Assembly: GCA_035279585.1 (NCBI GenBank)
Contig: DATEHN010000108.1
Location: 11,554 to 75,553 of the forward strand
DNA length: 64,000 bases
Direction: 5' to 3'
Source: Candidatus Angelobacter sp.
Lineage (GTDB): Bacteria; Acidobacteriota; Terriglobia; Terriglobales; Acidobacteriaceae
Part shown: piece after piece, positions 6,820-40,419 of the stretch
How the letters are laid out: each line of letters starts with the position of its first letter
Numbering within the stretch: the stretch's first letter is position 1
Program-made: the position numbers and the translations under genes
Notes under the pieces: model-generated
Databases searched by the model: none
Told to the model about the DNA's origin: nothing
The model's input: the letters and a program-made list of their open reading frames with translations, nothing else

Positions 6820-8202
6820 TTGAGGTGCACTGTGAAGAAATTACGTGTTGGGTTGCGGTTGTGCGTGTGCTTGTTGCTTCTGGCTGTTGTGGCATCCGCG
6901 CAAACCAAGCTTCCCAAAGTAGAGTTTACCGATACAACGCTGCCCAACGGGCTGCGCGTGATCATTGTGCCAGAGCATACTGCGCCGGTGTTCGCTATTT
7001 CGCTCACCTACAACACCGGATCGCGCAATGAAAAGCCGGGCCGCACCGGGTTTGCCCACCTCTTTGAGCACATGATGTTTGAAGGCTCTGCCAACGTGGG
7101 CAAGGGCGAGCACATGCTGCTGGTACAGAACTTTGGCGGCAGGCTGAACGGAAGCACCAACAATGACCAGACCAATTATTTTGAAGAGCTGCCCAGGAAC
7201 CAGTTGGATCTGGCATTGTTTCTGGAATCAGACCGCATGAAGGCGCTCAACATCACGCAGGCGAACCTGAATAACCAGCGCAATGCCGTGCAGGAAGAGC
7301 GCCGGTTGCGGGTGGACAACCAGCCGTATGGAAAATCGACGGAAGAGCTGGACGCCATGGCTTATGACAGCTTCCCCTATCACCACTCCGTGGTCGGCTC
7401 CATGGAAGACCTGAATGCGGCGAGCATTGATGATGTAAAGAACTTCTTCCGCATCTATTACGCGCCCAACAACGTGGTGATGGTGCTGGCGGGGGACCTT
7501 GATCCCAAGGAAACGCTGGTCAAAGTAAAGAAGTATTTTGGCGATATTCCTCGCCAGCCTGCCCCGCCTCCGGTGGATATGACGGAGCCGGCACATGATA
7601 AGGAGCGCCGCAAGACCATGGAAGATTCGCTGGCGCGCCTGCCGCAATATCATGCGGTCTATAACATCCCGCAGGGAAACACTCCAGACACGTATGCGCT
7701 GCAGGTGTTGGGCGCCGTTCTCTCCGGCGGACGTGGCGAACGCAGCTCCCGGTTCTATCAGCACCTGGTGCATGATAAACAACTGGCGCTCAACGCTATT
7801 GCCGGCGCGCAAGTCCGTCGCGGCCCTGGCTTGTTCAACGTGGTGGCCATCCCCCGGCCCGGAGTGAAAATGGAAGAGCTGGAAAAAGCCATTGACGATG
7901 AGATTGAAGCGGTAAAAAAAGACGGCATTACGCAGCAGGAGCTGGAAAAAGTTCGCACCCAATTCCTGCGCCAGGCGATTCAAACGCGGGGATCGGTCCT
8001 GTTTATGGCCAATCAAATTGGAACGTTCACCGTCTTCTATAACGACCCTAACCTGATCAACACGGCATACGATAAGCTGGCGGCGGTCACAGCCGACCAG
8101 GTCAAGCAGGCGGCGCAGAAGTATCTGGTGCCGGAGCATCGTTCTGTAATGATCACAATGCCGGGCGCGCGCGGCTCTGCCACCGCCGCGGGAATGCGGT
8201 AA
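6820..8202 (+). CDS. M16 (pitrilysin/insulinase) family zinc peptidase, catalytic subunit
   Basis: 460 aa with a signal peptide and the inverted zinc motif HLFEHMMFEG (HxxEH). The ORF begins at TTG 6820; GTG 6832 is an alternative start. Confidence 0.85.
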   Translation: MRCTVKKLRVGLRLCVCLLLLAVVASAQTKLPKVEFTDTTLPNGLRVIIVPEHTAPVFAISLTYNTGSRNEKPGRTGFAHLFEHMMFEGSANVGKGEHMLLVQNFGGRLNGSTNNDQTNYFEELPRNQLDLALFLESDRMKALNITQANLNNQRNAVQEERRLRVDNQPYGKSTEELDAMAYDSFPYHHSVVGSMEDLNAASIDDVKNFFRIYYAPNNVVMVLAGDLDPKETLVKVKKYFGDIPRQPAPPPVDMTEPAHDKERRKTMEDSLARLPQYHAVYNIPQGNTPDTYALQVLGAVLSGGRGERSSRFYQHLVHDKQLALNAIAGAQVRRGPGLFNVVAIPRPGVKMEELEKAIDDEIEAVKKDGITQQELEKVRTQFLRQAIQTRGSVLFMANQIGTFTVFYNDPNLINTAYDKLAAVTADQVKQAAQKYLVPEHRSVMITMPGARGSATAAGMR

Positions 8203-8211: not shown

Positions 8212-9720
8212 ATGTTAAAAAAATTATTCGCACTGAACTTTATACTCGGCCTGAGCGGAGCGCTGCTCCTGGCGCAACAACCTCAAGGTCCCGGCGGTGA
8301 CAGCAAAGAGCTTCCTACAAAAGTTGAGCGGCTCAACAAAGCGCCGGTGAACAATGAGGTCCTGAAGGTAAAGCTGCCGCATCCGAAAGAATTAACGCTG
8401 CCAAACGGCCTTACCGTCCTGGTCCTGGAGCAGCATCGGCTGCCCACGGTCTATTACGATTTGTGGATCAAGTCCGGCGCGCTTGCCGATCCCAAGGACG
8501 CGCCCGGCCTGGCTTCATTCACTGCCGATCTTCTGCGCGACGGCACAGCCAGGCTCAACAGCACCCAGATTGCAACTGAACTGGATGAAATTGGCGGCAC
8601 CTTTGTGGCGGACGCCAACTTTGGCTCCAACCTGACCACCATTTCAAGCACCGGCCTGAGCCAGTCTGCGGACAAGCTCATGGAACTGATGAGCGACATG
8701 GTGCTCAACCCCAGCTACCCTGAAGACGAGTTGCAGAAATTCAAGCGGCAGGCAGGCGCGCGCCTGTTTCAGGAGCGCTCCAATCCCGGATTTTTGGCTC
8801 GGGAGCGTTTTGCCCGCGCCGTTTATGGCGATTTCGGAGCGGCCATTCAGTCGCCAACGATTGACTCGCTCAAGAAGACCACGCCGGAGGCGCTCAAGGC
8901 CTTTCATGATAAGTATTACGCTCCCAACAACGCCATCCTGGCCATCGCGGGCGATGTGACCATGGCCCAGGCAACCGCGCTGGCCAAAAAATATTTTGGC
9001 GAATGGAAAAATCATCCGGTGGAAGCAGTGGCCATGGGGAGCGTTGCCGGTCCTGCAGGAGCAAAGATTTATCTGGTTGACCGGCCAGGTTCGGTGCAGA
9101 GCAATATCCTGGCAGGCGGGCTTTCACTGCGCCGCTCCGATCCGGACTTTATTCCTCTCTCTGTCACCAACCGCATTTTGGGCGGGGGCGCGGCGGCTCG
9201 GCTCTTCTCCAACCTGCGTGAAGAGAAAGGCTATACCTACGGCGCTTACAGCCGCGTGAGCAGCGACCTTTTTCCCGGAACGTTTGTGGCCAATACCGAG
9301 GTGCGCAACAACGTCACCGATCCTTCTCTGCACGAGCTGATGTACGAGTTCAAGCGTATTCGTGATGAGAAGGTGCCGCAGGCTGAATTGGACGACGCCA
9401 AGCGCTCCATCGTCTCCAGCTTTGCACTTTCACTGGAGAATCCGGCCGGCATCATCAATAACTGGATGGCAGTGAAATATTACGGCCTTCCCAGCGATTA
9501 TTGGGACCATTATTCTGACGAAATAGCCAAGGTCAATGCCGATACCGTGCAACGCATGGCCAAAAAGTATATCGATCTCGATCATCTGCAGATCGTTGTA
9601 GTGGGCGATGCCAAGCAGGTGCGTGAAGGCGTAGCCAAGTACGGCACGCTTGAGATGTTTGACGCTGACGGCAAGCCGGTTGAGGCCAAGGCTGAAGGCG
9701 CCCCGGCGGGAAATAAATAG
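8212..9720 (+). CDS. M16 family peptidase, non-catalytic partner subunit
   Basis: 502 aa starting 9 nt after the preceding M16 gene. It has the M16 fold pattern, but LASFTADLLRDG replaces the HxxEH motif. It carries a signal peptide. Confidence 0.8.
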   Translation: MLKKLFALNFILGLSGALLLAQQPQGPGGDSKELPTKVERLNKAPVNNEVLKVKLPHPKELTLPNGLTVLVLEQHRLPTVYYDLWIKSGALADPKDAPGLASFTADLLRDGTARLNSTQIATELDEIGGTFVADANFGSNLTTISSTGLSQSADKLMELMSDMVLNPSYPEDELQKFKRQAGARLFQERSNPGFLARERFARAVYGDFGAAIQSPTIDSLKKTTPEALKAFHDKYYAPNNAILAIAGDVTMAQATALAKKYFGEWKNHPVEAVAMGSVAGPAGAKIYLVDRPGSVQSNILAGGLSLRRSDPDFIPLSVTNRILGGGAAARLFSNLREEKGYTYGAYSRVSSDLFPGTFVANTEVRNNVTDPSLHELMYEFKRIRDEKVPQAELDDAKRSIVSSFALSLENPAGIINNWMAVKYYGLPSDYWDHYSDEIAKVNADTVQRMAKKYIDLDHLQIVVVGDAKQVREGVAKYGTLEMFDADGKPVEAKAEGAPAGNK

Positions 9721-9737
9721 AAGACAAAATTCCAACA

Positions 9738-9768
9738 GGCCTGGAGCGATCCGGGCCTTTTATTTTTT
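9738..9768 (+). terminator. Rho-independent terminator after the M16 pair
   Basis: GGCCTGG-agcgat-CCGGGCC stem (one G-U pair) followed by TTTTATTTTTT, 18 nt after the stop codon. Confidence 0.7.
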
Positions 9769-9820
9769 GCGCGGTCAGTTACACTGCTGAACAAGCTTAG
9801 ATAATCTGGGCGCGGATAAC

Positions 9821-10675
9821 ATGATCTCGACTGAAAACTCATCGCTCTTGCAGGGCATCAGGATCGTAAGCCTGGCGCTGAACGCGCCGGGGCCGGTTGC
9901 GGCAGCAAGGCTTGCACGGATGGGCGCTGAGGTCACCAAAGTTGAGCCGCCAAGCGGCGATGCTCTGAGCCATGCCGCCCCTGAGTGGTATGCGCAGCTT
10001 TGCAAAAATCAGCGCGTGCTAAAGGTGGACTTGAAAGCTCCGGCGGGAAAGCAAGAGCTGGAAAATCTTTTGGCTAAGGCAGATTTGCTGCTGGCATCGT
10101 TTCGTCCGTCGGCACTAAAGCGGCTTGGGCTGGATTGGGAGGGCCTGCACGTGCGGCATCCAAAGCTGTGCTTTGTTGGGATCATCGGCCATCGCGGACC
10201 CGATGAAGAGCGCAGCGGTCACGATCTGACTTATCAAGCTGACTTCGCCTTGCTGCGGCCGCCGCAGATGCCGTCATCTTTGTTTATTGATCTGGCCGGC
10301 GCGGAGCGAGCGGTGAGCATGGCGCTGGCACTGCTGAATAAAACAGCCCGAACAGGAGAAGCTGGCTGTGCCTGGGTCTCTTTGCATGAATGTGCGCGAG
10401 ACCTGGCTGAACCCATGAACGCAGGCCTGACAAAACCCGGCGGGTTGCTGGGCGGCGGATATCCTCTGTATGGCTTTTACAAAACGAGCGATGGCTGGGT
10501 GGCGATTGCGGCGCTGGAACCGCATTTCGCAGAACGCCTGCTGGCAGAACTCAAGCTTAAACAAGCTGACCGCTCCGAACTCGAAAAGATCTTTCTCCAG
10601 CGCAGCGCAACTGAGTGGGAACGCTGGGCAGCGGAGAGGGATTTGCCGCTGGTGGCGGTAAAGCAAACTGGATGA
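9821..10675 (+). CDS. CoA-transferase family III (CaiB/BaiF-like), short form
   Basis: N-terminal LQGIRIVSLALNAPGPVAAARLARMGAEVTKVEPPSGD matches the family III signature. At 284 aa it is shorter than typical members. Confidence 0.65.
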   Translation: MISTENSSLLQGIRIVSLALNAPGPVAAARLARMGAEVTKVEPPSGDALSHAAPEWYAQLCKNQRVLKVDLKAPAGKQELENLLAKADLLLASFRPSALKRLGLDWEGLHVRHPKLCFVGIIGHRGPDEERSGHDLTYQADFALLRPPQMPSSLFIDLAGAERAVSMALALLNKTARTGEAGCAWVSLHECARDLAEPMNAGLTKPGGLLGGGYPLYGFYKTSDGWVAIAALEPHFAERLLAELKLKQADRSELEKIFLQRSATEWERWAAERDLPLVAVKQTG

Positions 10676-10733
10676 GGCAAGCCGCCTGCGTGTAGGATGC
10701 TCGGTCACTCCTCTACGAGCGAAAGGAATTACT

Positions 10734-11579
10734 GTGTTTCAAAAGAATTTACTCTCCGGCAAGAGAATCCTGGTCACCGGCGGTGCAACCGGCCTGGGCA
10801 AAAGCATGGGCAAGCGATTTCTGGAACTCGGCGCTTCGCTTTACATCTGCGGACGCCGTGAAGATGTTCTGCGTGAAGCCGCCGGCGAGCTGAGCAAGAC
10901 CACCAGCGGCACAGTGAAAACCTTTTCCTGTGACGTACGCGACAACCAGCGTGTAGAAGCGATGATCGAGAGCTTCTGGCAGGATGGCCCGCTGGATGGA
11001 CTGGTAAACAACGCTGCCGGAAATTTCCTTTGCCGGACGGAAGAGCTTTCCATCGGCGCGTTTGAAGCCGTGATCGGCATTGTGCTGATGGGATCCATCC
11101 ACTGCACCATGGCTTGCGGCAAGCGCTGGATCAAAGAGAATCGCAAAGCCACAGTCCTGAACATCACCACAACCTACGCGCAGTGGGGGTCGCCGTATGT
11201 GGTGCCATCGTCGGTGGCGAAGGCGGGTGTCCTGAATATGACGCGCAGCCTGGCCGTTGAGTGGGGTAAATATGGAATTCGGTTCAATGCCATCGCTCCC
11301 GGCCCGGTACCGACAGAAGGCGCATTTTCACGGCTTATGCCGGTGAAGTCGCTGGAAGAAGCAGCCAAGAAGAAAAATCCGCTGGGCCGCTTTGGCACGC
11401 ATGACGAACTGGCCGACCTGGCAGCCTTCCTGATGAGCGACCAGTCCGGCTACGTAAACGGCGAACAGATCGTTATGGACGGCGGCGAACAGCTCAAAGG
11501 CGCCAGTGAGTTCAGCCATATGGGCGATCTGCTGACTGAAGAGCAATGGCAGATGATGAAGCCGAGAAAGAAGAGCTAA
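10734..11579 (+). CDS. Short-chain dehydrogenase/reductase (2,4-dienoyl-CoA reductase-like)
   Basis: GTG start preceded by AAAGGA. Rossmann motif VTGGATGLGKSM and the SDR pattern NNAAGNF...; 281 aa. Confidence 0.8.
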   Translation: MFQKNLLSGKRILVTGGATGLGKSMGKRFLELGASLYICGRREDVLREAAGELSKTTSGTVKTFSCDVRDNQRVEAMIESFWQDGPLDGLVNNAAGNFLCRTEELSIGAFEAVIGIVLMGSIHCTMACGKRWIKENRKATVLNITTTYAQWGSPYVVPSSVAKAGVLNMTRSLAVEWGKYGIRFNAIAPGPVPTEGAFSRLMPVKSLEEAAKKKNPLGRFGTHDELADLAAFLMSDQSGYVNGEQIVMDGGEQLKGASEFSHMGDLLTEEQWQMMKPRKKS

Positions 11580-27635: not shown

Positions 27636-30368
27636 ATGCTCGGTCGTTCCTGCAGGGCCGTTGTTGCGAAGCACTGTTCCCTCGGCATTTTCATTTTGGC
27701 TTGCGCTCTAAGCCAGGCAAAAGCACAGAACATTCCTAATCCTTGCCCGAATGCGCAGCCAATCCCCACGGAGTTGCGCCTGCCGCCCAACCTGCCGACC
27801 GGTGAGCCAGTAGCTTTTGAGAAACAGGTGCTGGCGTATCTAAGCACGCTCAACTATCGCAAGCTCGGCTGGTGTGAAGACAAGTGGGTGCGCGATACAG
27901 GCCCTTATATGAATGGGAAAGACGCAATCGTGCATCCGCCGGTGCGCATCTTCTATTCGCCTGAAGTCTCCAAGTGGCTGCTCGGTGACCGTCAGGGCGA
28001 GATTCCGGACGGTGCGGTCATCATCAAGGAGCAATTTGGTCCTGCTCCGGCTGCGCGCTTTGCAAATATTCCGCCGGACAAGCTGGGATGCTCAAACGAC
28101 TGGACCTTCATGATCAAGAATTCAGCCGCATCCCGCGACGGCTGGTTCTGGGGCGAGGTCTGGAACAGTGATCAATTTCCCATGAATTTTTCTGATCCGT
28201 TCCAGTATCCCAATGCCGGATATGGGCTCTACTGCCTGCGCTGCCATTCGTCGGCGGAGAAAGAACATACTTTCTCGACGCTGAACAACATCAAGAACGC
28301 GCCGGGATGGCCGCTGCAATACCGGGTTGACGATTCCTGGATGACGATCAAGGCCGATCCTCCAGGCGCCTGTGGCCATGGCAAGAGCGGCGCTGATCCG
28401 ACGGCCAATGAAGGTTTTCCCCAGCACGCACAGAATGCGCTGCTGGCAACCGAACATGTTCATCCTCTGGCAAAGCTGCTGGCAGCACCTCCCGTTCTGC
28501 AAAGGATGCCGCCGGAGCCGCTGGACAACTTTGTGCAGAAGTATCCCAAATCACTCGATCCGCTTACGAGCCCACAATTCGTCACCTCAGCGCAGTGTCT
28601 GGGATGCCATGGCGGTCTTGGCAATACCGGATTTGGACCCAGCATGGTCATTCTTCCGGACATGAATGTCTCGCCTTATGGTGAGTGGCGCTGGTCGCCC
28701 ATGGGGCTTGCTGGACGCGACCCGGTTTTCTATTCGCAACTGGATAGCGAGCTTGCTTTCCTGAAAAGCCAGCCGAAAACACAGCAGAACGTAGTGGATA
28801 CGTGCATGAGCTGCCACGGAGTCATGGGCAAAAGGTCTTTTGCGGCGGAGCATCCAACGGAAAATTTCAAGGTGGATTTTGTCTATGACACCGATCAATC
28901 TTCTGACGCCTTCCGCTATGGAGGCCTCTCACGCGATGGCATCAGTTGCATGGCGTGCCACCAGATGGCAGCGCCCAAAGACGGCCGCCTGAGCTATTTT
29001 CTGCAAAACAAGATCAACGGCCAATTTGATCTCACGCCGAACGACCAACTCAACGGGCCCTTCAAAGACGCGGAGATCACGACTTATCCCATGGACACAG
29101 CGATGGGAGTGAAGCCAAAATTTAATTCCTATATTCAGTCGCCGCAGATGTGTGGAAGCTGCCACACGATTGTCCTTCCGATTGTGGACAGCCCGAAGCC
29201 CGGAGAAACAGAGGTAGAACAGGCGACCTATCCGGAGTGGCTGAACAGCCAGTATCGCAATGAATATGGATCGGTGGGCACCACGCCCAAGACGTGCCAG
29301 GAATGCCACATGCCCACCGGCTACGTCGATCAGAAACAGAAAATCGATGTAACCCAGATCAAGACGCGCATAGCTACTGTGCAGGACCTTACGCTCCCGC
29401 AAACCGAACACCTGGCAACGCCGGAGCAAATCGACGTCCGCTACCGCGATGAAGGCTATCGCCGCCACGAATTGCTGGGAGCCAATGGGTTCCTTCAGGA
29501 GATGTTCCTGCTGCCGATCAACGATAGCGGAAACAACACGGTTCTTGGCGTGCGAACGAAAGACTACATGACCGGTTTCACCACCGACCTGAACAAAGCA
29601 GTGGACAACGTGGTGAAACAGGCGCAGAGCATTACGGCAACAGTTGGGATCTATAGCCTCCACGCGCAAGGAAATAAGCTTACAGTTGATGTAATTGTTA
29701 ACAACTTGGCTGGACATCGCTTTCCCAGCGGAGTTGGATTCCGGCGCGCCCTCCTTGAATTTCGGGCGATGGCTAACGGGCAGACCTTCTTTACCTCTGG
29801 AACCACCAACAGCATGGGACAGATCACAGACTCCAACGGCAAGGTGTTGCCCACGGAATCATTCGCGGGGGGAAAATATCAGCCTCATTTCAACCAGAAA
29901 AACCCCATCACCTCTTCTGACCAGGTGCAGATCTATGAGGAGCTCACCGAGGATGCGAACCATCAAATTACAACCAGCTTCACGCGGCGCGATCATGAAA
30001 TCAAAGACAATCGGCTGCTGCCCGCAGGGTGGTCTTTCACCGGTCCGCCCGACCTGAAGATTCCGGAGTTCTTTCTGGAAGCTACGCGTCCGAAGGGAGA
30101 TGCAGCAAATGATCCGGTATACCTTGCCGGCAAAGGACAGTCGATTGTGCGCTATGAAATTGCCATTCCGCCCAACCTGCAGAACCAGCCTGTAACCGTA
30201 AGAGTGTCACTCTATCTGCAAACTCTGCCGCCGTACTTCCTGGCGGACCGTTACCAGACGGCAACACCGGCAACCGGCCGGCTGAAATATTTAACAGGTT
30301 CCCTGGGAACGCTCAAGGACACGGAGTTGGCGAACTGGAAGTTGCTGGTGGCAACAGCAACGAAATAG
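27636..30368 (+). CDS. Secreted hexaheme c-type cytochrome family protein (910 aa)
   Basis: Signal peptide, then six CxxCH motifs read directly from the translation: CLRCH, CLGCH, CMSCH, CMACH, CGSCH, CQECH. Confidence 0.8.
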   Translation: MLGRSCRAVVAKHCSLGIFILACALSQAKAQNIPNPCPNAQPIPTELRLPPNLPTGEPVAFEKQVLAYLSTLNYRKLGWCEDKWVRDTGPYMNGKDAIVHPPVRIFYSPEVSKWLLGDRQGEIPDGAVIIKEQFGPAPAARFANIPPDKLGCSNDWTFMIKNSAASRDGWFWGEVWNSDQFPMNFSDPFQYPNAGYGLYCLRCHSSAEKEHTFSTLNNIKNAPGWPLQYRVDDSWMTIKADPPGACGHGKSGADPTANEGFPQHAQNALLATEHVHPLAKLLAAPPVLQRMPPEPLDNFVQKYPKSLDPLTSPQFVTSAQCLGCHGGLGNTGFGPSMVILPDMNVSPYGEWRWSPMGLAGRDPVFYSQLDSELAFLKSQPKTQQNVVDTCMSCHGVMGKRSFAAEHPTENFKVDFVYDTDQSSDAFRYGGLSRDGISCMACHQMAAPKDGRLSYFLQNKINGQFDLTPNDQLNGPFKDAEITTYPMDTAMGVKPKFNSYIQSPQMCGSCHTIVLPIVDSPKPGETEVEQATYPEWLNSQYRNEYGSVGTTPKTCQECHMPTGYVDQKQKIDVTQIKTRIATVQDLTLPQTEHLATPEQIDVRYRDEGYRRHELLGANGFLQEMFLLPINDSGNNTVLGVRTKDYMTGFTTDLNKAVDNVVKQAQSITATVGIYSLHAQGNKLTVDVIVNNLAGHRFPSGVGFRRALLEFRAMANGQTFFTSGTTNSMGQITDSNGKVLPTESFAGGKYQPHFNQKNPITSSDQVQIYEELTEDANHQITTSFTRRDHEIKDNRLLPAGWSFTGPPDLKIPEFFLEATRPKGDAANDPVYLAGKGQSIVRYEIAIPPNLQNQPVTVRVSLYLQTLPPYFLADRYQTATPATGRLKYLTGSLGTLKDTELANWKLLVATATK

Positions 30369-30641: not shown

Positions 30642-30677
30642 CGTCCGAAAATGGACACGGAAGTCCATAATTGGACA
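30642..30677 (+). promoter_or_regulatory. Tandem palindromic sites (candidate enhancer/UAS for the NtrC-type regulator)
   Basis: CGTCCGAAAATGGACA (30642-30657) and AGTCCATAATTGGACA (30662-30677) sit 20 bp centre to centre. The same TGTCCA-N4-TGGACA motif recurs at 36284-36320. Confidence 0.45.
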
Positions 30678-30739
30678 CCAATGCGAGCCAGGGTTTGCCT
30701 TTAGCCTTTTGTTTTTAAGAAATTTTGCGAAAAATAGAT

Positions 30740-30755
30740 TGGCTCTAGGAATGCA
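30740..30755 (+). promoter_or_regulatory. Candidate sigma54 (-24/-12) promoter upstream of the ADOP permease operon
   Basis: TGGCTC-TAGGA-ATGCA has GG and GC at the exact consensus spacing of TGGCAC-N5-TTGCW. It lies ~130 nt upstream of ATG 30885. Confidence 0.45.
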
Positions 30756-30884
30756 TCAACACAGGTCAGGCCTTTAGCGGGGTACGTCGATCCAAAGATA
30801 ATGTGATGAATACTTGGAAGATCGCGAGTGAGGCTTAGCTCGCTCAGGATGGGAAAGCGGTTCGTAATGGCGAGCCATCGATTG

Positions 30885-33326
30885 ATGTCAACACTCTTTC
30901 AAGACTTCTCTTACTGCATTCGTTCTCTGAGGAAAACACCGGGATTCACATTCGTGTCCGTGGCCACCTTGGCGTTTGCTATCGCCGCTAACATAGTGGT
31001 TTTCAGCATTCTCGATGCGATAGCCCTACAGCCACCACCTTATCGCAATGCCGGCCGCATTTCGGTGCTTCGCTGGTCTGATCGTAAGCTTCAACCCCAA
31101 GCAGAGGTTTCGGCCGCCGTTTTCTTTATGTTGCAGAAACATGCCCAATCTTTTGCAACAGTCGCTGCATCATATCCGCAAGACGTGGGTATAAACCTTG
31201 CCGGATCGGGTGTTCCACGTTATGTCAAAGCCCTACGCGTGTCGCAGAGCTATTTCGAAACGCTCGGCGTAGAACCGATCCTCGGACGCTCCTTTTTGCC
31301 AGAAGAAGATCGGGCCGGCTCTCCGGGAACGGTTATCCTCAGTTATCGATTGTGGGAAACCGGTTTCAATCGGGAGCCTGCCATTCTCGGAGAGCAACTT
31401 AGGATCAATGGCGCCCAATTCTCGGTTATCGGTGTGATGCCTTCCGGATTTTATTCGTATCCCAATGCCGATGTTTGGGTTCCTCTACAACTCAATGACG
31501 CAAATGCCGATCCAGGTAGTGACTACTTAGTACTTGCTTCTTTGAAAGACACTGTGGTTCCCTCCCAGGCGGAACAGGAACTGTCGACACTTTCTCGTAA
31601 TTATCCTATGTCTTACCTTCCTGGCATGACAGCAGGAACGGCACAACTCAGCCTCGAAGATTTGCAGAAATTCCGTACTGCCAGGGTTCGCAGACAACTC
31701 ACTTTATTGTTCTTTGCAGTTGCCACAGTGCTTCTGGTCACTTGCACCAATGTAACTGTATTGCTTCTGGTGCGCGGACTTGCCCGAACACAAGAAATGG
31801 CGCTGCGAGCTGCTCTAGGCTCGTCAAAATGGAGGTTGGTCCAAATTGTTTTGACCGAAAGCGCGCTCGTTGCCGCATGCGGAGGGATCCTCGGGATTGC
31901 TTTGGGCAAGGAGCTGTTGCAGTTGGCTGTATCAATTCTGCCCCATCCTTTGTTGGAAGGCGCAAGAATTGACATGAACCGACAATCATTGCTTTTCGGT
32001 CTAGCGCTTTCAGCTTTAACCCTTGTCGTCCTCGGGTTCCTGCCTGCCATTAAATTGGACCTGAAGAGCATTACCGCCAGCTTGAGGCCGGCGAACCGGG
32101 GTATAACAGCCGGCGTTGGCCAGACCCGGCTGGCTCAACTCCTGGTAACGACGGAAGCAGCGCTGACGGTTGTTCTTCTTGGGTTCGGACTACTTCTATT
32201 GCAGAGCTTTATAAATCTGTGTTCGGTGAGTCCTGGCTTCAATCCGACGTCTGTATCCGTTATCCAGGTATCGCTTGCCGGTGCACGGTATCAAACCACA
32301 GCAGCCACATGTCGTCTGGTAGATTCGGTTGTCGATCAACTTGCGAGAACGGCAGGGGTCGAAACCGTAGGAACCAGCAATGGCCTGCCACTCGAAACCG
32401 GCCTGAATCTGCCTGTCTATCCAATGGATTCACCCCGCAATATCGACCACGCGGTCCAATATCGAATGGTCAAAGGCAGTTATTTCAAAGCCTTGCGCAT
32501 CCAGCTGTTATCTGGGCGATTGTTTTCCCAGCAAGACGGCGCAAAGGGGCAGCCCGTTGCAATCATCAATGAAGTACTGGCCCGTCGCTGGTGGCCGAAC
32601 GAGAGCGCGATTGGTCATTACCTCCATGCCGGCGAGGAATACGGTCCGGAGTTCAACGATCATCCACGCCAGGTCATCGGCGTTGTTGCCAACGTGCATG
32701 AACTAGGGTTGAGGTACGATTCTCCACCCACAGTCTTTGTGCCTGATGACCAGGTATCGGACAGCCTGACTGCGTTTACGAACAAGCTGTTTTTACTTTC
32801 CATCCTCGTTCGAACCAAGCAGGATCTGGAGATGTCCGAACAAATCAAGTCCGTCCTCGCCTCTGCTGACCCCGATCTTCCAATCGCATCTTCACGTCCC
32901 ATGACAGTCGTGATGAACGGATCTCTTGCTCGTCCACGCTTCTATACCCAGATTGCGGGGCTCTTCGCTGTTTTCGCATTGCTTCTGACAGCGATCGGGC
33001 TGTATGGGTTACTCAGCTATCAAGTACAGCTCAGGATGCCAGAACTCGGTGTCCGAATTGCCCTTGGAGCGACCCGGCCGCAGATAGTTTGGCTTATCAT
33101 CAGACAAGGCATACGTCTTTCCGCAACGGCTCTTTTCTTAGGGCTCATCGGTTCGATTTTTGTAAGCCGGGCTCTGAGTGGGATGCTTTATAATACCGAC
33201 CATGTCTTCTTACGGTTATTGATTGGGGAGGGTGCATTACTTGGGTTCGTTACGATAATGGTTACTTCCCTCGCTGCTGCTCGCATTTCCGCTATCGAAC
33301 CATTGACGGTCCTGCGCAGCCAGTAA
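30885..33326 (+). CDS. ADOP-family (MacB/FtsX-like duplicated) ABC transporter permease
   Basis: The N-terminus MSTLFQDFSYCIRSLRKTPGFTFVSVATLAFAIAANI is typical of acidobacterial duplicated orphan permeases. It has two MacB-periplasmic-core plus FtsX 4-TM halves and no adjacent ATPase gene. The ORF track starts at GTG 30828. Confidence 0.85.
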   Translation: MSTLFQDFSYCIRSLRKTPGFTFVSVATLAFAIAANIVVFSILDAIALQPPPYRNAGRISVLRWSDRKLQPQAEVSAAVFFMLQKHAQSFATVAASYPQDVGINLAGSGVPRYVKALRVSQSYFETLGVEPILGRSFLPEEDRAGSPGTVILSYRLWETGFNREPAILGEQLRINGAQFSVIGVMPSGFYSYPNADVWVPLQLNDANADPGSDYLVLASLKDTVVPSQAEQELSTLSRNYPMSYLPGMTAGTAQLSLEDLQKFRTARVRRQLTLLFFAVATVLLVTCTNVTVLLLVRGLARTQEMALRAALGSSKWRLVQIVLTESALVAACGGILGIALGKELLQLAVSILPHPLLEGARIDMNRQSLLFGLALSALTLVVLGFLPAIKLDLKSITASLRPANRGITAGVGQTRLAQLLVTTEAALTVVLLGFGLLLLQSFINLCSVSPGFNPTSVSVIQVSLAGARYQTTAATCRLVDSVVDQLARTAGVETVGTSNGLPLETGLNLPVYPMDSPRNIDHAVQYRMVKGSYFKALRIQLLSGRLFSQQDGAKGQPVAIINEVLARRWWPNESAIGHYLHAGEEYGPEFNDHPRQVIGVVANVHELGLRYDSPPTVFVPDDQVSDSLTAFTNKLFLLSILVRTKQDLEMSEQIKSVLASADPDLPIASSRPMTVVMNGSLARPRFYTQIAGLFAVFALLLTAIGLYGLLSYQVQLRMPELGVRIALGATRPQIVWLIIRQGIRLSATALFLGLIGSIFVSRALSGMLYNTDHVFLRLLIGEGALLGFVTIMVTSLAAARISAIEPLTVLRSQ

Positions 33327-33344: not shown

Positions 33345-34802
33345 ATGCTGCGGGGAATTATTGAGAAGCCTGGGCACCCTTGGCTCAGTTCTGCTCATAT
33401 GCGAAATTTCGAGAATCAATACCGCATTCTGGCTGCCGATGATCAACCCGCCGTGCTTGAAGCCCTGAAGATGCTGCTCCGGTCGGAAGGCTTTGAAGTA
33501 GAAACGGCCCGTTCACCCCAGGTCGCTCTGGAAGCAGTAAAAACGCGTGAATTCGATACTCTGATCCTGGACCTCAACTATGCCCGCGATACCACTTCGG
33601 GGAAGGAAGGCATTGAGCTTCTTGAAAGCATTCGTGAAGTGGATAACCAGGTACCGATCATCGTGATGACGGCCTGGGGCACGATTGATCTCGCTGTAGA
33701 GGCGGTACGCAGAGGTGCGCGCGATTTTGTCCAAAAGCCCTGGAACGACGACCACTTGATAGCTACGGTCCGAACCACTGCGGAACTGTACCGTGCCCTG
33801 CGCCAGGGACAACGCCTTGAAGCAGAGAACCGGCTATTTCGCAGCTATGGTGCGCCAAGTTTTGTCGCTACAGCTCCTGCCATGCGCCCCATAGTAGAAG
33901 CCATTTCGCAGATTGGCCCATCGGACGCCAATGTTCTTATTACGGGCGAACACGGCGCCGGGAAAGAGGTGGTGGCTTTGATGTTACATGCGGTTTCACG
34001 TCGCGCAGACAAACCGCTCATTGCCGTCAACACCGGGGGCTTGCCGGAGGGCACTTTTGAAAGCGAATTGTTTGGTCACGTCAGAGGGGCCTTTACCGAT
34101 GCCAAGGCGGACCGGATCGGGCGATTTGAAATGGCTGATCAGGGAACATTGTTCTTGGATGAAATTGCCAATGTTCCGCTGAGGCAGCAGGCCAAACTCC
34201 TGCGCGTTTTGGAGAGTGGGCAGATGGAGCGTGTAGGGTCCTCACGCACACGCCAGGTGAATGTGCGTGCTCTCTCTGCGACAAATGCGGACCTTCAAGC
34301 CAAATGCAATGCGGGTGAATTTCGTGAAGACCTTCTGTTTCGGCTTAATACTGTTGAAATTCACATTCCATCGCTGCGGGAGCGCCCTGAGGATATTCCG
34401 CCTCTGGCTGCACATTTCTTGAATAAACACGCCAGCCGTTATCATAAGGCGCTTCAGGGACTCAGCCCTGAAGCAGTGGAGAAACTCGTAACCTTTCCCT
34501 GGCCGGGAAATGTACGGCAGCTGGACCACGTTATTGAACGCGCCACGATCATGTGCAAAGGAAATTTCATTCAACCCGGCGACCTGGGGCTTCAAGTTTC
34601 CTCCGAACATCATCCAGCAGACCTGAGTGAGATGAGCCTCGAACAGGCGGAAAAGCTCCTGATCAAGAAGGCTTTAGCGCGTTATAAAGGGAGTGTGAAG
34701 CTGGCGGCTGAAGCGCTGGGTCTCAGCCGCGGCACATTTTATCGCCGGATGGAGAAGCACGGGCTACATGAATCCACGTCCGCCAGGAAACAGCAGCAAT
34801 AA
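33345..34802 (+). CDS. Sigma54-dependent response regulator (NtrC family bEBP: REC-AAA+-Fis HTH)
   Basis: REC domain (RILAADDQP...LILDLNY). AAA+ domain with Walker A GEHGAGKE, the loop ELFGHVRGAFTDA (GAFTGA variant), Walker B LFLDEI and R-finger region. C-terminal HTH AAEALGLSRGTFYRRM. ATG 33399 is an alternative start. Confidence 0.9.
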   Translation: MLRGIIEKPGHPWLSSAHMRNFENQYRILAADDQPAVLEALKMLLRSEGFEVETARSPQVALEAVKTREFDTLILDLNYARDTTSGKEGIELLESIREVDNQVPIIVMTAWGTIDLAVEAVRRGARDFVQKPWNDDHLIATVRTTAELYRALRQGQRLEAENRLFRSYGAPSFVATAPAMRPIVEAISQIGPSDANVLITGEHGAGKEVVALMLHAVSRRADKPLIAVNTGGLPEGTFESELFGHVRGAFTDAKADRIGRFEMADQGTLFLDEIANVPLRQQAKLLRVLESGQMERVGSSRTRQVNVRALSATNADLQAKCNAGEFREDLLFRLNTVEIHIPSLRERPEDIPPLAAHFLNKHASRYHKALQGLSPEAVEKLVTFPWPGNVRQLDHVIERATIMCKGNFIQPGDLGLQVSSEHHPADLSEMSLEQAEKLLIKKALARYKGSVKLAAEALGLSRGTFYRRMEKHGLHESTSARKQQQ

Positions 34803-36189
34803 AGGAATGGGACGGCTATCGCTGTCCTTTGAGCGCCGCCTGTTTCTTTCCGTACTGTTCGCCGGACTTCCTGGAGTCGGACTCGCCCTCTTTCTGCTTT
34901 GGTCAGGCCAGTATTCCCTCTACCATAAGACCCTGGGCACCGTTGTTCTGGCTCTTCTGTGGTCCTTATTGGCGGTGTCCGCTTGTGGGAGCGTCACCAG
35001 CGCATTGCGGGTCTTGTCAAATGTAATCGAATCTCTCAAGGAGGAAGACTTTTCCTTTCGGGCTGCGCATGCAATTAAGGGTGATGCACTGGGCGATCTA
35101 GCAATCGAGGTCAATAAACTTGCTCAAGCGCTCAACGAAGAGCGCCTGGCATCATTGGAAACCGTGAATCTATTTCGCCGCATCATGTCGGAAGCTGGAG
35201 CGGTGATGTTTGCCTTTTCCGATGACCGCTGCGTGCGCCTCATGAATCGAGATGCAGCCCGCTTGTTGGGCCATAGCGAAGAACAGCTGCTGCATCGCAG
35301 CGCGCAAGAGCTGGGTATTACTGATCTCATCGAGGGCCCACCCGCGGAAACAATAACCCGCATGTTCGGTGGTCTTGAACGTCGATGGATCGTTCGTCGC
35401 TCTCATTTCCGGTTCCATGGCATTCAACATACGTTAATCGTGATGTCGGAAGCATCCGAGGCGCTTCGCGCGGAAGAGAGATCAGCTTGGCAAAAACTTA
35501 TCCGCGTTCTCGGCCATGAGATTAATAATTCGCTTGCACCAATTAAGTCGATTGCATATACGTTGGCCCGAACGTCGGCAAGCGAAAATTTGCCGGCACC
35601 GTTGAAAGTTAACCTGAAACAAGGGTTGGAAGTCATTGCTGATCGTTCCGATTCCCTGAACCGATTTCTTCAGGCCTATACCCAAATCGCAAAACTTCCT
35701 CCGCCGTCACCCATGGTAAGTTCGTTGCCGGCCATTGTCTCCAATGTTGTTGCCTTGGAGCACAGACTTCCCATTGCCACTCTTTCGGATGGCTGTCTCG
35801 ATGTTCTTGTTGATCGTGACCAACTGGAGCACGCTATCATCAATTTGGTTCGTAACGCTGTCGAGGCGGTACTGATGAACTCAGAAGTGGTGCAGGATGA
35901 CGCCGTGACAATATCATGGCATTCACATGCAGGCGATCTCGAACTATGGATACGGGACCGCGGCATTGGCCTTCCCGAAACTCAGAACCTATTTGTTCCT
36001 TTTTACACCACTAAGCAGAATGGGACCGGCATTGGCCTTGTGCTGAGCCGCCAAATCATTGAAGCGCATAATGGCCGTCTCTCCATCCAAAACCGCCAGG
36101 ATGGGCCCGGTTGTGAAGTTAGGCTTTTCCTGCCTCGCTGTGTAGTCGCTCGCAAGCCGCTGGGACGTATGCCATCCACCGGAAAATGA
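34768..36189 (+). CDS. Sensor histidine kinase (2 TM, HAMP/PAS-like, HisKA, HATPase_c)
   Basis: H-box LGHEINNSLAPIKS, N-box LVRNAVEA, G-boxes DRGIGLP and GTGIGLVLSRQI. It overlaps or abuts the regulator gene (alternative start ATG 34807). Confidence 0.9.
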   Translation: MNPRPPGNSSNKGMGRLSLSFERRLFLSVLFAGLPGVGLALFLLWSGQYSLYHKTLGTVVLALLWSLLAVSACGSVTSALRVLSNVIESLKEEDFSFRAAHAIKGDALGDLAIEVNKLAQALNEERLASLETVNLFRRIMSEAGAVMFAFSDDRCVRLMNRDAARLLGHSEEQLLHRSAQELGITDLIEGPPAETITRMFGGLERRWIVRRSHFRFHGIQHTLIVMSEASEALRAEERSAWQKLIRVLGHEINNSLAPIKSIAYTLARTSASENLPAPLKVNLKQGLEVIADRSDSLNRFLQAYTQIAKLPPPSPMVSSLPAIVSNVVALEHRLPIATLSDGCLDVLVDRDQLEHAIINLVRNAVEAVLMNSEVVQDDAVTISWHSHAGDLELWIRDRGIGLPETQNLFVPFYTTKQNGTGIGLVLSRQIIEAHNGRLSIQNRQDGPGCEVRLFLPRCVVARKPLGRMPSTGK

Positions 36190-36283: not shown

Positions 36284-36320
36284 TGTCCGCTACTGGATTC
36301 GATTTGTCCATAACTGGACA
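36284..36320 (+). promoter_or_regulatory. Tandem palindromic sites (candidate enhancer/UAS) upstream of the lanthipeptide operon
   Basis: TGTCCGCTACTGGATT (36284-36299) and the perfect palindrome TGTCCATAACTGGACA (36305-36320) sit 21 bp centre to centre. A third, weaker site TGTCCAAGTTTGGCGG lies at 36416-36431. Confidence 0.5.
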
Positions 36321-36474: not shown

Positions 36475-36490
36475 TGGCACAACACTTGCT
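36475..36490 (+). promoter_or_regulatory. Sigma54 (-24/-12) promoter
   Basis: TGGCAC-AACAC-TTGCT matches TGGCAC-N5-TTGCW at every specified position. It ends 48 nt upstream of the precursor-peptide ATG. Confidence 0.65.
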
Positions 36491-36537: not shown

Positions 36538-36678
36538 ATGCCCCAAGTTCTTAACTTTCAACGCCTGGGATTTAATGGATCACGGATTGATGATATTGAA
36601 CCATTGTTTCTTATCAGCAGTACCAGCAGCATCTGCTCAACCGTTCCAACAACCGGCAGCGGGATCCCAGCCAACTAG
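36538..36678 (+). CDS. Class III lanthipeptide precursor peptide (46 aa; not in ORF track)
   Basis: ATG 36538 is preceded by GGAGAAAGTCG. The product is MPQVLNFQRLGFNGSRIDDIEPLFLISSTSSICSTVPTTGSGIPAN. It has a leader motif VLNFQ (compare the ILELQ-type class III leader motif). The Ser/Thr-rich core contains S-x-x-S-x-x-C. It lies 130 nt upstream of the LanKC gene. Confidence 0.7.
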   Translation: MPQVLNFQRLGFNGSRIDDIEPLFLISSTSSICSTVPTTGSGIPAN

Positions 36679-36686: not shown

Positions 36687-36730
36687 GCGGGGCTGCTCAC
36701 GGTTCGAAAACCAGCCGCCCCGCCATTTTT
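36687..36730 (+). terminator. Hairpin plus T-run between precursor and synthetase genes (candidate attenuator / partial terminator)
   Basis: GCGGGGCTG (36687-36695) pairs with CAGCCGCCCCGC (36712-36723) with one bulge, followed by CATTTTT (T5 at 36726-36730). Confidence 0.4.
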
Positions 36731-36808: not shown

Positions 36809-39547
36809 ATGCGCAGCAGACCGACCCTCTTGTACGAACTGCTCGATCGAGATTACTACGAGACATTCGATGCCTACGTGCCGGAGAAGGCGGATTTTTA
36901 TCATGCTGTCGATTCCAGGCTTCCCGCGGGATGGGAAATTCAGCGCCAAAATGTCTGGTTCCAATGCGGATCACCCGACAATGTGGTGCCGCAACAGGGC
37001 TGGAAAATCCATGTCTCCGCAACCTGCAAGGATGCCCGTGGCACTCTCGAGCGTGTCGTCACCGTGCTGTTTCGGAGAAAGGACACGGCCTTCAAATTTG
37101 CGCTCGACCGGGTTTCGCTTGCTCTCCTCAACAGCAAAGGCTGGACGCGTGGCGGAGCGGGCAAATTCATTACCATTTATCCGAAAGATATTCAATGTTT
37201 CTTGGAGCTGCTGGAAGAACTCCATAGCGTAACGCGCGGTCAAGCCGGCCCCTATATCTTGTCTGACTATCGATATGGCGCCGACGGCGTCGTCTTCTAT
37301 CGTTATGGTGGAATGCGCGCACGTTACAGTCTCAACGTAAGAGGAGAGCTCGTCCCCGTGCTGCTCGCCCCTGACGGTACAGAAACTCCGGACCGCCGCC
37401 TTCCCTTTCCCGTGACGCCCCCTTGGGCTGACGTTCCATTTCCTGCAGTCTCCGGTGAGGATACTCAATCAGGGGAGCTGATGCTCCTGCAAAACGGCAG
37501 ATACGAGATCCAAAATGTGATGGCGTTTTCCAATGCCGGCGGAGTGTATCGTGCTATCGACCGGCACACTGGGCTCCATGTAGTCCTAAAGGAGGCCCGT
37601 CCGCATGTTGGTCCTGCTAACTGTGGTATTGATGCAATAGAGCTATTGAAAAAAGAACACCGCTTGCTGACGATCCTGAGCGATAGCGGCATTGCACCCA
37701 GGCCCAATGACCTTTTTCAGGAATGGGAACACTGGTTCTTGGTCGAGGAATTCATCGAGGGAGTGACTCTGGCGAATCATTCCTTACAGCATAATATTCT
37801 GCTGCGCACCAGACCATGCTCTGACGATCTACAGCAGTGGTTAACTACGTTTTCGAGTGTCGCCTTGAATCTCATCAAGACCATTGAAATCTTGCATGAC
37901 CATGGAATTGTATTCGGCGACCTTTCCCCCAATAACCTGATCGTCAAACCAGGCACCAATGACTTGTGCGTGATTGATTTCGAAGCAGCGCAGCAGATAG
38001 GCATAGACGCGCCCCTCGTGCTCTACACTCCCGGCTTCGCCTCTAAGCAGCGAATGTCCAGCGGAGCTGCCACTTTTGCCGAAGATTATTATGCCTTGGG
38101 GGCCGTCCTGAGTTCATATCTTCTGCCATTGAATGGTCTGTTCCAGTTCCGTCCTGAAGCCAAAACGGATGTTCTCCGTTCCATTGCAATTGACCTTCAT
38201 CTGCCGGCCAATATTGTTGATGCCATTCTGCGGCTCCTCAGCTCGGAGCCTGCCGAGCGCCCAACACCGAAAATGCTCACGCAACTCTTCACCACTCCAT
38301 GTGAACCCATGAATGTTCCTTCCAACGCGGCGCGCATCGACTACGGCGCATTGATAGGAGATATTGAGGGCCATATCCTCAATTCAGCAACTTACAAGCG
38401 CCATGACAGGCTGTTTCCCGCCGATGCGTCACTGTTCGCGACAAATCCTCTAAGCTTGTCCCATGGGGCGGCCGGGGTCGCCTACGCGTTGCATCGGATT
38501 TCTGATCAGTTTCCCGAGCGGGCCGTTGACTGGATCCTTCAGCATAAGATTACGAACAACGCGTATCCGCCTGGCTTATACATTGGGTCCTCGGGAATAG
38601 CTTGGTGTCTGCTTGAACTTGGCCTTCAAAAGGAAGCCGAGAAGATATTTCAGCTCACATTGTCCAGCCCTCTTCGATATAAGGCCGCAGACTTGTTTTA
38701 TGGCATGGCCGGCAACGGATTAACCGCATTGCGTTTCTTCATGGATACTCAAAATGAGTCATACCTGGATTGTGCAATCGGCGCTGGTGAAGAGCTGCTA
38801 CGAACAGGCTGCAGAAGCGGCAACGGGCTTTACTGGCCGGATGGTTCGGAAATACGGCTAGGCATGGCACATGGCGCGAGCGGAATAGCACTCTTTTTGC
38901 TTTATCTCTTCATGATAACTGAGGATGCTCGTTTCCTCGCCGCAGGGCAGGGCGCTCTGAATTTCGATTTAAGTTTCGCGCGTGAGACCAGGGATGAAGG
39001 ACTTTCCTGGGCACATTCCGATCATGTTGCATCTCCCCTCTATCCATACTGGCGCTTTGGGAGCGCCGGCGTGGGCGCCGTTGTATTGCGCTACTACAGG
39101 TTGCTTAGAGACCCCCAGTATCGATCCCTCCTCGAACAGATTTTCATCGAGGTGGATCGGAAGTATGCCGTTTTAACAGGGCAGTTCATGGGATTGTCCG
39201 GGCTTGGCGAGTTCTCGCTTGATCTTTACGAGTATTTTGGCGAGGAGAGATTTTTGAACAGCGCCAGAAAGGCTGCGGAGGGAATCATGCTCTTTCGCGT
39301 CGACCGCGCTGGCATCGCATTTCCGGGCGATCAACTTCTACGCCTTTCCTGCGACTATGGGACGGGAAGTGCCGGTGTTGCTTTGTTCTTGAACCGTCTC
39401 GCAGGCCGCCAGGGCAACAATTTCATGTTGGATTCTCTTTTCCATCTTCCCGCCGGCCTGCCCGAAAATACCCTGTCACCTTCGCAGCAACATTCCATTG
39501 CTCTTTATGATGTCATGCATCATCAATACATCCATTCCGGATGGTAG
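36809..39547 (+). CDS. Class III lanthipeptide synthetase LanKC (lyase - Ser/Thr kinase - zinc-ligand-less LanC-like cyclase)
   Basis: The RBS GGAAGGA precedes the ATG. N-terminal lyase motif QGWKIHVSA. Kinase motifs VVLKEARPHVG, GIVFGDLSPNNLIV and VIDFEAA. The C-terminal LanC-like repeats carry GMAHGASGIALFL, but YWRFGSAG replaces WCxG and SCDYGTGSAG replaces CHG, so the Zn ligand set is incomplete. That points to class III rather than class IV. Confidence 0.85.
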   Translation: MRSRPTLLYELLDRDYYETFDAYVPEKADFYHAVDSRLPAGWEIQRQNVWFQCGSPDNVVPQQGWKIHVSATCKDARGTLERVVTVLFRRKDTAFKFALDRVSLALLNSKGWTRGGAGKFITIYPKDIQCFLELLEELHSVTRGQAGPYILSDYRYGADGVVFYRYGGMRARYSLNVRGELVPVLLAPDGTETPDRRLPFPVTPPWADVPFPAVSGEDTQSGELMLLQNGRYEIQNVMAFSNAGGVYRAIDRHTGLHVVLKEARPHVGPANCGIDAIELLKKEHRLLTILSDSGIAPRPNDLFQEWEHWFLVEEFIEGVTLANHSLQHNILLRTRPCSDDLQQWLTTFSSVALNLIKTIEILHDHGIVFGDLSPNNLIVKPGTNDLCVIDFEAAQQIGIDAPLVLYTPGFASKQRMSSGAATFAEDYYALGAVLSSYLLPLNGLFQFRPEAKTDVLRSIAIDLHLPANIVDAILRLLSSEPAERPTPKMLTQLFTTPCEPMNVPSNAARIDYGALIGDIEGHILNSATYKRHDRLFPADASLFATNPLSLSHGAAGVAYALHRISDQFPERAVDWILQHKITNNAYPPGLYIGSSGIAWCLLELGLQKEAEKIFQLTLSSPLRYKAADLFYGMAGNGLTALRFFMDTQNESYLDCAIGAGEELLRTGCRSGNGLYWPDGSEIRLGMAHGASGIALFLLYLFMITEDARFLAAGQGALNFDLSFARETRDEGLSWAHSDHVASPLYPYWRFGSAGVGAVVLRYYRLLRDPQYRSLLEQIFIEVDRKYAVLTGQFMGLSGLGEFSLDLYEYFGEERFLNSARKAAEGIMLFRVDRAGIAFPGDQLLRLSCDYGTGSAGVALFLNRLAGRQGNNFMLDSLFHLPAGLPENTLSPSQQHSIALYDVMHHQYIHSGW

Positions 39548-40080: not shown

Positions 40081-40419
<339 letters not shown>

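Follow-up and report, generated by a model that had tools for sequence, protein, structure and literature searches.

The 64,000-nt stretch of DNA from Candidatus Angelobacter sp. that was analysed here as a whole (hereafter the window) carries lanKC, a gene for a class III lanthionine synthetase. It is preceded by lanA, which encodes a small precursor peptide, and by three genes for an ADOP-family permease, a sigma-54-dependent activator and a histidine kinase. These genes and their predicted control elements are collected in Table 1. A preliminary description, made from the sequence of the window, had read an open reading frame (ORF) with three recognizable domains at 36809-39547 on the forward strand and had regarded it as half of a minimal two-gene cluster. 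The ORF and its domains were confirmed by Pfam and by the NCBIfam model NF038151, but the two-gene view did not hold: lanA-lanKC is part of a conserved five-gene module of two operons, one for permease, activator and kinase and one for precursor and synthetase.

Table 1. Features of the lanA-lanKC locus and peptidase genes elsewhere in the window (positions refer to the window)
Feature	Position	Strand	Evidence or remark
Control region of the permease-activator-kinase operon	30643..30754	+	GTCC-N5-TGGAC at 30643 and 30663; TGGCTC-N5-ATGC at 30740-30754
ADOP-family duplicated MacB-type permease	30828..33326	+	TIGR03434, 702.6 bits against a cut-off of 622
NtrC-type sigma-54-dependent response regulator (bacterial enhancer-binding protein, bEBP)	33345..34802	+	Pfam Response_reg, Sigma54_activat (PF00158, E 4.2e-61), HTH_8
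Histidine kinase	34768..36189	+	Two transmembrane helices, then PAS, HisKA and HATPase (Pfam)
Two GTCC-N5-TGGAY sites, 21 bp apart	36285..36319	.	Probable activator binding sites (predicted)
Sigma-54 promoter TGGCAC-N5-TTGC	36475..36489	+	49 nt before the lanA start
lanA	36538..36678	+	46-aa precursor MPQVLNFQRLGFNGSRIDDIEPLFLISSTSSICSTVPTTGSGIPAN; GGAG 7 nt before the ATG
GC-rich hairpin and U-run between lanA and lanKC	36687..36723	+	Probable attenuator or partial terminator
lanKC, class III lanthionine synthetase	36809..39547	+	912 aa, uninterrupted ORF
Lyase domain, OspF/SpvC-like phospho-Ser/Thr lyase (aa 33-214)	36905..37450	+	RamC_N, PF25816, E 2.9e-58
Ser/Thr kinase domain (aa 243-491)	37535..38281	+	Pkinase, PF00069, E 1.9e-13
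Metal-free LanC-like cyclase domain (aa 546-866)	38444..39406	+	LANC_like, PF05147, E 1.4e-26
M24 Xaa-Pro aminopeptidase	5253-6689		
Tandem M16 peptidases	6820-8202, 8212-9720		

The start codon of lanKC is supported by an AGGA-type ribosome-binding site and by homologues that align from residue 1. Its product scored above the cut-off of the LanKC equivalog NF038151 (764 bits versus 575; E 2.3e-229) and below that of the class IV LanL model NF038150 (589.7 bits versus 650). All sequence motifs quoted in the preliminary description were found (GWKIHVSA at aa 64, VLKEARP at 259, GDLSPNN at 370, DFE at 390 and GMAHGASG at 685). The best full-length sequence match in the PDB was ThurKC (8sao, E 8.5e-75), and further relatives were the 9wop/9wj0 pair, CuvL (8car), SalKC and PneKC. 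An AlphaFold model computed with 30 homologues as input reached a mean predicted local distance difference test score (pLDDT) of 80.2 and a predicted template modelling (TM) score of 0.78. Its only full-length structural matches were ThurKC (TM score 0.70/0.74), CuvL (0.72/0.76), SalKC and PneKC. Because domain hits, PDB matches and the fold of the model agree, lanKC is a real gene, and its product is a trifunctional lanthipeptide synthetase. Judged from sequence and model, we consider it about 85% probable that it is a functional class III LanKC whose substrate is the 46-aa LanA peptide encoded 130 nt upstream.

We determined residue conservation in an alignment of the 120 closest homologues, all of which are at least 52% identical to LanKC. 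The lyase residues K66, H68, K96, K110, K119, D153, R165 and R197 and the kinase residues K261, E283, D371, N376, D390 and E392 are invariant in all 120. The lyase set corresponds one-to-one, in position and spacing, to K65/H67/K94/K108/K117/D152/R163/R191 of ThurKC, several of which were proven necessary for dehydration (PMC10604976). The kinase domain matched that of CurKC (7wj6) with a sequence E of 1.9e-27 and a TM score of 0.85-0.87, normalised to the target. The possibility of an inactive kinase or lyase, raised in the preliminary description as an argument against its own reading, is thus not the case, as all catalytic residues are conserved in every homologue.

The cyclase domain forms the helical repeats of an alpha/alpha-toroid in the AlphaFold model (aa 547-864), and on its own it gave significant PDB matches only to LanKC-type structures and CuvL. 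To locate the zinc-site columns, a profile of 82 LanKC cyclase domains was aligned by hhalign (probability 99.1%) to the cyclase of a class II LanM encoded in the same genome, which shows the canonical SHG, WCHG and CLCHG motifs. The Asp/His dyad of LanM aligned with D628/H688 of LanKC, the first zinc-ligand Cys (WCHG) with R749 and the C-H-G motif with F793-M794-G795. The same columns were obtained with CuvL, where Asp and His are matched by Asp and His, FCQG by WRFG and QCCGLAGIGE by QFMGLSGLGE. The ThurKC alignment agrees, since the columns of S726, F770 and D771 hold R749, F793 and M794; in ThurKC these residues stand in for Cys284, Cys330 and His331 of NisC (PMC10604976). In all three alignments LanKC has none of the three zinc ligands (0/3) and is therefore assigned to class III. 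This agrees with the class III assignment in the preliminary description, which had also correctly named an Arg in place of the WCxG Cys. The Asp-Tyr that it had placed at the CHG His lies elsewhere. The zinc site, which it had called incomplete, is absent altogether. Intact Cys-Cys-His ligands, the finding that it had named as incompatible with its reading, were not seen in alignments to LanM, CuvL or ThurKC. Among the 120 homologues, R749 is found in 95, H688 in 115, D628 in 110, F793 in 115, C848 in 119 and D849 in 108. Position 794, the counterpart of ThurKC Asp771, is variable and never acidic, with Met (50), Ile (14), Thr (14), Ser (12) and Ala (11) as the commonest residues.

LanKC resembles the class III-a synthetase of andalusicin, AncKC/ThurKC from Bacillus thuringiensis (PDB 8SAM/8SAO/8SAP; PMC8169954, PMC10604976), in three-domain order, fold, identical lyase and kinase catalytic sets and a zinc-free cyclase in which Phe occupies ligand position two (F770 in ThurKC, F793 in LanKC). 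It differs in an identity of only 23-24% over the structural alignment, in a three-residue insertion after F793 and in Arg749, Met794 and His688, which replace Ser726, Asp771 and Asp667 of ThurKC. The pair F793-M794 is not Phe-Asp, and this identity contrasts with more than 74% within the subclass (PMC13504147); membership in class III-a was therefore rejected. The cyclase domain alone found its best PDB match in TherKC (E 7e-20), a class III-c enzyme from Thermoactinomyces (PMC13504147), 9WOP/9WJ0 being taken as TherKC by motif identity (LRSGLAGIGL, GLIDGWSGVS). TherKC substrates also carry an STxSNxC-like S-x2-S-x2-C motif. Class III-c was rejected too, because LIxGDIRQ, LRSGLAGIGL, GLIDGWSGVS and GILxxNPLYWLP remained unmatched in LanKC even with loosened patterns; the Phe769-Asp770 pair of TherKC is Phe-Met in LanKC. 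CuvL, the curvocidin synthetase (PDB 8CAR/8CAV), which we take to be a class IV enzyme, shares with LanKC the fold, the LanC Asp/His dyad and a ligand loop of equal length, but its three ligand positions are all Cys (FCQG, QCCG), where LanKC has Arg, Phe and Met.

The precursor LanA consists of a VLNFQ leader and a core with a single S27-x2-S30-x2-C33 unit. Residues M1, L5, Q8, S27, S30 and C33 are invariant in the nine aligned LanA peptides nearest to that of the window, whose leaders are of the (V/I)LxLQ type. At about 28 of 30 non-actinobacterial loci, lanKC is preceded by a small ORF whose product has an (I/V)LxLQ leader and a core rich in Ser, Thr and Cys, and four further metagenomic loci have the same type of ORF in this place. 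An (I/V/L)LxLQ leader and an S-x2-S-x2-5-C core are motifs of class III precursors (PMC11251773, PMC8169954), and two labionin motifs are recognised, of which S-x2-S-x2-C is one (PMC8169954, PMC11251773, PMC13504147). In andalusicin, Ser17/Ser20/Cys23 were shown by nuclear magnetic resonance to form labionin (PMC8169954). The andalusicin system shares with that of the window the VLxLQ-type leader, one S-x2-S-x2-C unit and a cluster without a protease. It differs by a Thr-rich N-terminal core and a methyltransferase, which the system of the window lacks, and by seven precursors instead of one. The system of the window belongs to a Gram-negative host, is under predicted sigma-54 control and includes an ADOP permease. 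Because of its labionin motif and VLxLQ-type leader, the expected chemistry of LanA is of a known kind. The new chemistry expected in the preliminary description is thus not indicated for this precursor, whose enzyme belongs to an abundant and already annotated family.

By analogy with work on LabKC and ThurKC, the VLNFQRL leader helix would dock on LanKC. The kinase domain, by means of K261, E283, D371, N376 and D390, would then phosphorylate Ser/Thr residues of the core ...SSTSSICSTVPTTGSG..., and the lyase domain (K66, H68, K96 and their partners) would remove the phosphate to give dehydroalanine or dehydrobutyrine. Finally, the zinc-free LanC-like domain is expected to join Cys33 to a dehydroalanine within S27-x-x-S30-x-x-C33. 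The predicted product would be a lanthionine or, if a second Michael addition follows as it does in andalusicin, a labionin. We infer these steps, including metal-independent cyclisation, and the type of ring from the conserved residues and the characterised relatives.

We then compared the gene neighbourhood by tblastn of the window proteins against related loci (designated L001 and so on) and by look-ups of four metagenomic contigs. Genes for an ADOP permease, the activator and the histidine kinase adjoin lanA-lanKC at all 12 clade loci (12/12). They are co-directional with lanA-lanKC in the window, L009, L016, L089, L090 and L091; in L010-L013 and L092, the permease operon runs divergently. 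Further out, the flanking genes vary between the clade loci (NusG, amidohydrolase, PKS/NRPS [polyketide synthase/nonribosomal peptide synthetase], AraC and others). The ADOP permease of the window is 42-44% identical to full-length linked copies and 53-60% identical to two partial ones, compared to 27% for a second ADOP-like gene within the window. The activator is present at all clade loci and is 73-74% identical to its copies in L016 and L009; the kinase is 61-67% identical to those in L009 and L016. Luteibacter loci (Pseudomonadota) also carry activator and kinase genes upstream of lanA-lanKC, together with an FtsX-type permease fragment in L027. The LanKCs of Candidatus Angelobacter, Terriglobia and other Acidobacteriota metagenome-assembled genomes (MAGs), all machine-annotated, are 52-67% identical to that of the window and share the precursor type, the five-gene module and the sigma-54 promoter. 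The preliminary description had seen no transporter besides the upstream ADOP permease. It is indeed the sole transporter gene of the module, but as a conserved partner it is no bystander, and it probably serves in export, immunity or sensing.

Downstream of lanKC, L010 and L092 of the divergent sub-branch carry an extra stand-alone LanC-like gene directly after lanKC (6544-7959 and 9726-10973, respectively; 415-471 aa, PF05147 E 4e-53). Neither the window nor its nearest relatives have such a gene.

Both operons would be transcribed from a sigma-54 promoter and share GTCC-N5-TGGAC activator sites. TGGCAC-N5-TTGC upstream of lanA is the only exact match of this sequence in the window, and the 11 related loci have a GG-N10-GC element in the corresponding position, about 60-80 nt ahead of lanA. 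The motif GTCC-N5-TGGAY occurs eight times in the window, compared to 0.92 expected, and six of these eight sites lie in the two operon promoter regions. Upstream of lanA, the sites are paired in L009-L013, L028 and L092 and single in L016 and L089, and they recur in a Luteibacter locus. An inverted-repeat finder with a minimum length of 12 returned nothing in the promoter regions; the GTCC-N5-TGGAY sites were found by pattern search. The locus thus shows the features of a sigma-54 two-component regulon, namely a -24/-12 GG-N10-GC element, a bEBP with PF00158 and paired upstream sites, and its sequence suggests that the module is controlled by sigma-54 and the activator. In several relatives, GTCC-N5-TGGAY sites, mostly in pairs, are also found downstream of lanKC (L009 8360-8392, L010 8047-8210, L013 6862-6895, L016 7405-7418), which suggests further regulon members there; in L013 they are followed by a second sigma-54 activator gene. 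The region between lanA and lanKC folds with -38.6 kcal/mol (z -2.27), and a hairpin immediately behind the stop codon of lanA was also predicted in L016, L010, L011 and L013 (four of six relatives folded). The terminator scan missed it, because its loop exceeds 8 nt. This hairpin probably sets the ratio of precursor to enzyme.

Hydropathy analysis of the histidine kinase in 19-residue windows gave transmembrane-like windows starting at aa 24-29 and 54-62. Since the two helices are joined by only about seven residues, the kinase has no periplasmic sensor domain, and its architecture is reminiscent of permease-dependent intramembrane-sensing kinases. In the BceRS-BceAB modules of Bacillota, an FtsX-fold permease is paired with a kinase of two transmembrane helices and no sensor loop. 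The likeness to the window is one of logic only, as the latter has an NtrC-type regulator with sigma-54 and a duplicated MacB-type permease with no adjacent ATPase.

How far this evidence carries can be judged against other readings of the locus. For the enzyme itself, one is that lanKC is a decaying relic, or that its product is a RamC-like protein with a role other than peptide modification. Nothing specific speaks for this beyond the C-terminal 30 residues, which are unconserved and of low pLDDT, and with an intact frame, fully conserved catalytic residues and a conserved precursor and synteny it is hardly credible. A class IV LanL with a zinc-dependent cyclase, or one that retains part of the zinc site with C848 as a ligand, would account for the still considerable NF038150 score, for the retained D628 and H688, for the loop around 793-801, which has the same length as in CuvL, and for the near invariance of C848. 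However, only the LanKC model was exceeded, and by a wide margin, and Arg, Phe and Met occupy the ligand positions. C848 lies in the SCDYG segment (847-851), about 55 residues past F793-M794-G795 in the loop before the last GxxG repeat. As this loop, with S847-C848-D849-Y850, is a gap in LanM and SGGW in CuvL, off the ligand position, C848 is not a leftover zinc ligand. We therefore rejected the class IV assignment on model scores and ligand columns and consider its probability negligible. Two observations on the LanKC product itself weigh against our interpretation. The S-x2-S-x2-C motif by itself cannot separate labionin from lanthionine (PMC8169954, PMC8341899), and the position of the essential Asp771 of ThurKC is non-acidic in the LanKC clade. 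Since this position is variable and non-acidic, the cyclisation mechanism of ThurKC is not simply transferable.

The same holds for the module: ADOP permeases are highly paralogous in Acidobacteriota and no ATPase gene is adjacent, so that peptide transport by this permease can only be inferred; GTCC-N5-TGGAY was not found upstream of lanA in L090 and L091; and the z-scores of the lanA hairpins are modest (-1.8 to -2.3). The large number of ADOP genes, the second copy in the neighbouring NRPS cluster and the missing ABC ATPase would also fit an autonomous pair of lanA and lanKC with permease, activator and kinase as unrelated neighbours. But the same three genes stand at 12/12 loci in two orientations while the other flanks differ, the linked ADOPs are closer to each other than to the paralogue in the window, each of the two operons has a sigma-54 promoter and the common activator-site motif in front of it, and the Luteibacter loci keep activator and kinase, with the FtsX-type fragment in L027. 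Thus, a self-contained two-gene cluster is very unlikely. A more serious possibility, although still the less probable one, is that permease, kinase and activator mainly serve Bce-like detoxification and sensing, in which the kinase reads the activity of the permease on the mature peptide, for self-immunity or auto-induction, and the permease is not an exporter. The two helices with their short loop and missing sensor domain are the architecture of BceS-type kinases, permeases of the MacB/FtsX fold partner such kinases in Bacillota, and activator sites common to both operons fit a positive feedback; the regulator, however, is of the NtrC and not the OmpR type, and the permease is a duplicated MacB type without ATPase rather than a BceB. 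In a tentative and rather doubtful further reading, the Terriglobia/Angelobacter LanKCs might form a distinct, uncharacterised subclass between the zinc-type cyclases of class IV and the canonical class III cyclases, with production possibly wired via the sigma-54 activator, the intramembrane-sensing kinase and the ADOP permease. The features behind this idea are the D628/H688 dyad, a loop of class IV length, the lack of an Asp771 counterpart, R749 and C848. At the position of the first ligand Cys, R749 could take over from the metal in lowering the pKa of the substrate thiol.

No peptidase gene beside lanKC was revealed when the larger ORFs of the window were scanned with Pfam, in line with the preliminary description, which had noted that a dedicated leader protease is absent. 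In class III clusters a protease is usually absent and the leader is cut by enzymes encoded elsewhere, including M1 aminopeptidases (PMC8341899, PMC10604976); the leader of andalusicin is removed by an M16B pair encoded outside the cluster (PMC10604976). The LanA leader would thus probably be cut by peptidases encoded elsewhere. Because andalusicin uses an M16B pair, the tandem M16 peptidases of the window are candidates for a trans-acting leader peptidase, but they may equally be housekeeping enzymes. An M24 aminopeptidase gene is located next to them (Table 1).

Convergent to lanKC, an NRPS-type gene string occupies positions 40467-63999 on the reverse strand. It encodes a Trp-halogenase-like FAD enzyme, an argininosuccinate-lyase-like protein, a CmlA-like diiron beta-hydroxylase, an ATP-grasp ligase, a Na/H exchanger, a beta-eliminating lyase, a flavin reductase, a methyltransferase, a thioesterase, a class IV aminotransferase, the second ADOP-like permease (about 15 kb away), a PALP enzyme and an A-T-C NRPS module that is cut off by the end of the window. 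The halogenase, CmlA-like, ATP-grasp and NRPS genes were considered as lanthipeptide tailoring genes and rejected, as they lie on the opposite strand and gave no tblastn match at related lanKC loci. For the latter reason, the string was not counted in the lanthipeptide module. The only downstream gene of the window that also occurs at related loci is a SnoaL gene, shared with L016 and L089, the two closest relatives. Between this SnoaL-like gene and the next gene lies a perfect (ACA)14 repeat (40313-40354; Tandem Repeats Finder score 84). Immediately before the permease operon, positions 27636-30368 encode a 910-aa protein with hits to cytochrome P460 and multi-haem (MtrC-like, CXXCH) proteins.

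The genome encodes a second class III LanKC (L001, contig C122, lanKC at 1480-4197), which scores 773 bits, is 44% identical to that of the window and has Glu instead of His at the position of H688. Its precursor (about 1216-1362), MNRILHLQKTSVSTDAAEAASFSTNDSTFSWFCSSCSDFGCITITANS, contains S-x2-S-x2-C as well as S-x2-S-x3-C units and has three Cys. In addition, L005 (contig C83) and contig C56 (72725-73387) each carry a LanM-like gene of class II, about 1100 aa long; the one that was read has an intact SHG/WCHG/CLCHG zinc site. With two LanKC and two LanM-like genes, the organism has at least four lanthipeptide synthetase genes.

Among the candidates scored in a word-indexed protein search, 1677 proteins reached E <= 1e-20. 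The best 120 of these are 52-67% identical to LanKC, and several of them are machine-annotated as LanKC in Candidatus Angelobacter or Acidobacteriia MAGs. In species-representative genomes, 587 relatives were confirmed, which belong to Acidobacteriota, Chloroflexota, Eremiobacterota/Vulcanimicrobiota, Elusimicrobiota, Gemmatimonadota, Pseudomonadota, Saccharimonadota, Bacillota and Actinomycetota. A maximum-likelihood tree placed the LanKC of the window in a fully supported clade of seven Terriglobia/Angelobacter members, sister to a Blastocatellia sequence and near the second LanKC of the genome itself. As Candidatus Angelobacter is a genus of Terriglobia (Acidobacteriota), the acidobacterial setting recognised in the preliminary description is supported by the tree. 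One contig labelled Candidatus Limnocylindrales (Chloroflexota; L012) nests in the Angelobacter clade and has the same ADOP/activator module and precursor type, which indicates a mis-binned acidobacterial contig or a recent transfer. A metagenomic homologue (P0010; 981 aa, 59% identical) also matches the LanM dehydratase domain PF13575 in precomputed hits and may be a fusion or a gene-call artefact. The family to which LanKC belongs is common in soil Acidobacteriota, and LanKC is one of its uncharacterised members, with hundreds of close relatives. The gene itself is unremarkable and is correctly identified by standard annotation models.

As the preliminary description had stated, almost all characterised class III systems come from Actinobacteria and Firmicutes (Actinomycetota and Bacillota; PMC7268733, PMC8341899, PMC13504147). 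For a class III cluster from Myxococcus, the modified peptide was made in E. coli (PMC9576775). Our literature search on class III synthetases or LanKC in Acidobacteria or Acidobacteriota yielded nothing relevant and no characterised example, and we found no description of lanthipeptide control by a sigma-54 activator, an intramembrane-sensing kinase and an ADOP permease. The more interesting aspects of the locus would be this conserved module and a cyclase active site whose composition is unlike those of ThurKC and TherKC, which have been studied structurally. How zinc-free LanKC cyclases activate cysteine is an open question (PMC8341899, PMC10604976). The Terriglobia/Angelobacter clade is a natural variant without the proposed catalytic Asp of ThurKC, but with the LanC Asp/His dyad and an Arg at a former ligand position, and could inform how this activation is achieved. 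The sigma-54/kinase/ADOP module, in turn, offers a concrete starting point for activating silent clusters of this kind and for giving one of the numerous orphan ADOP permeases a first function.

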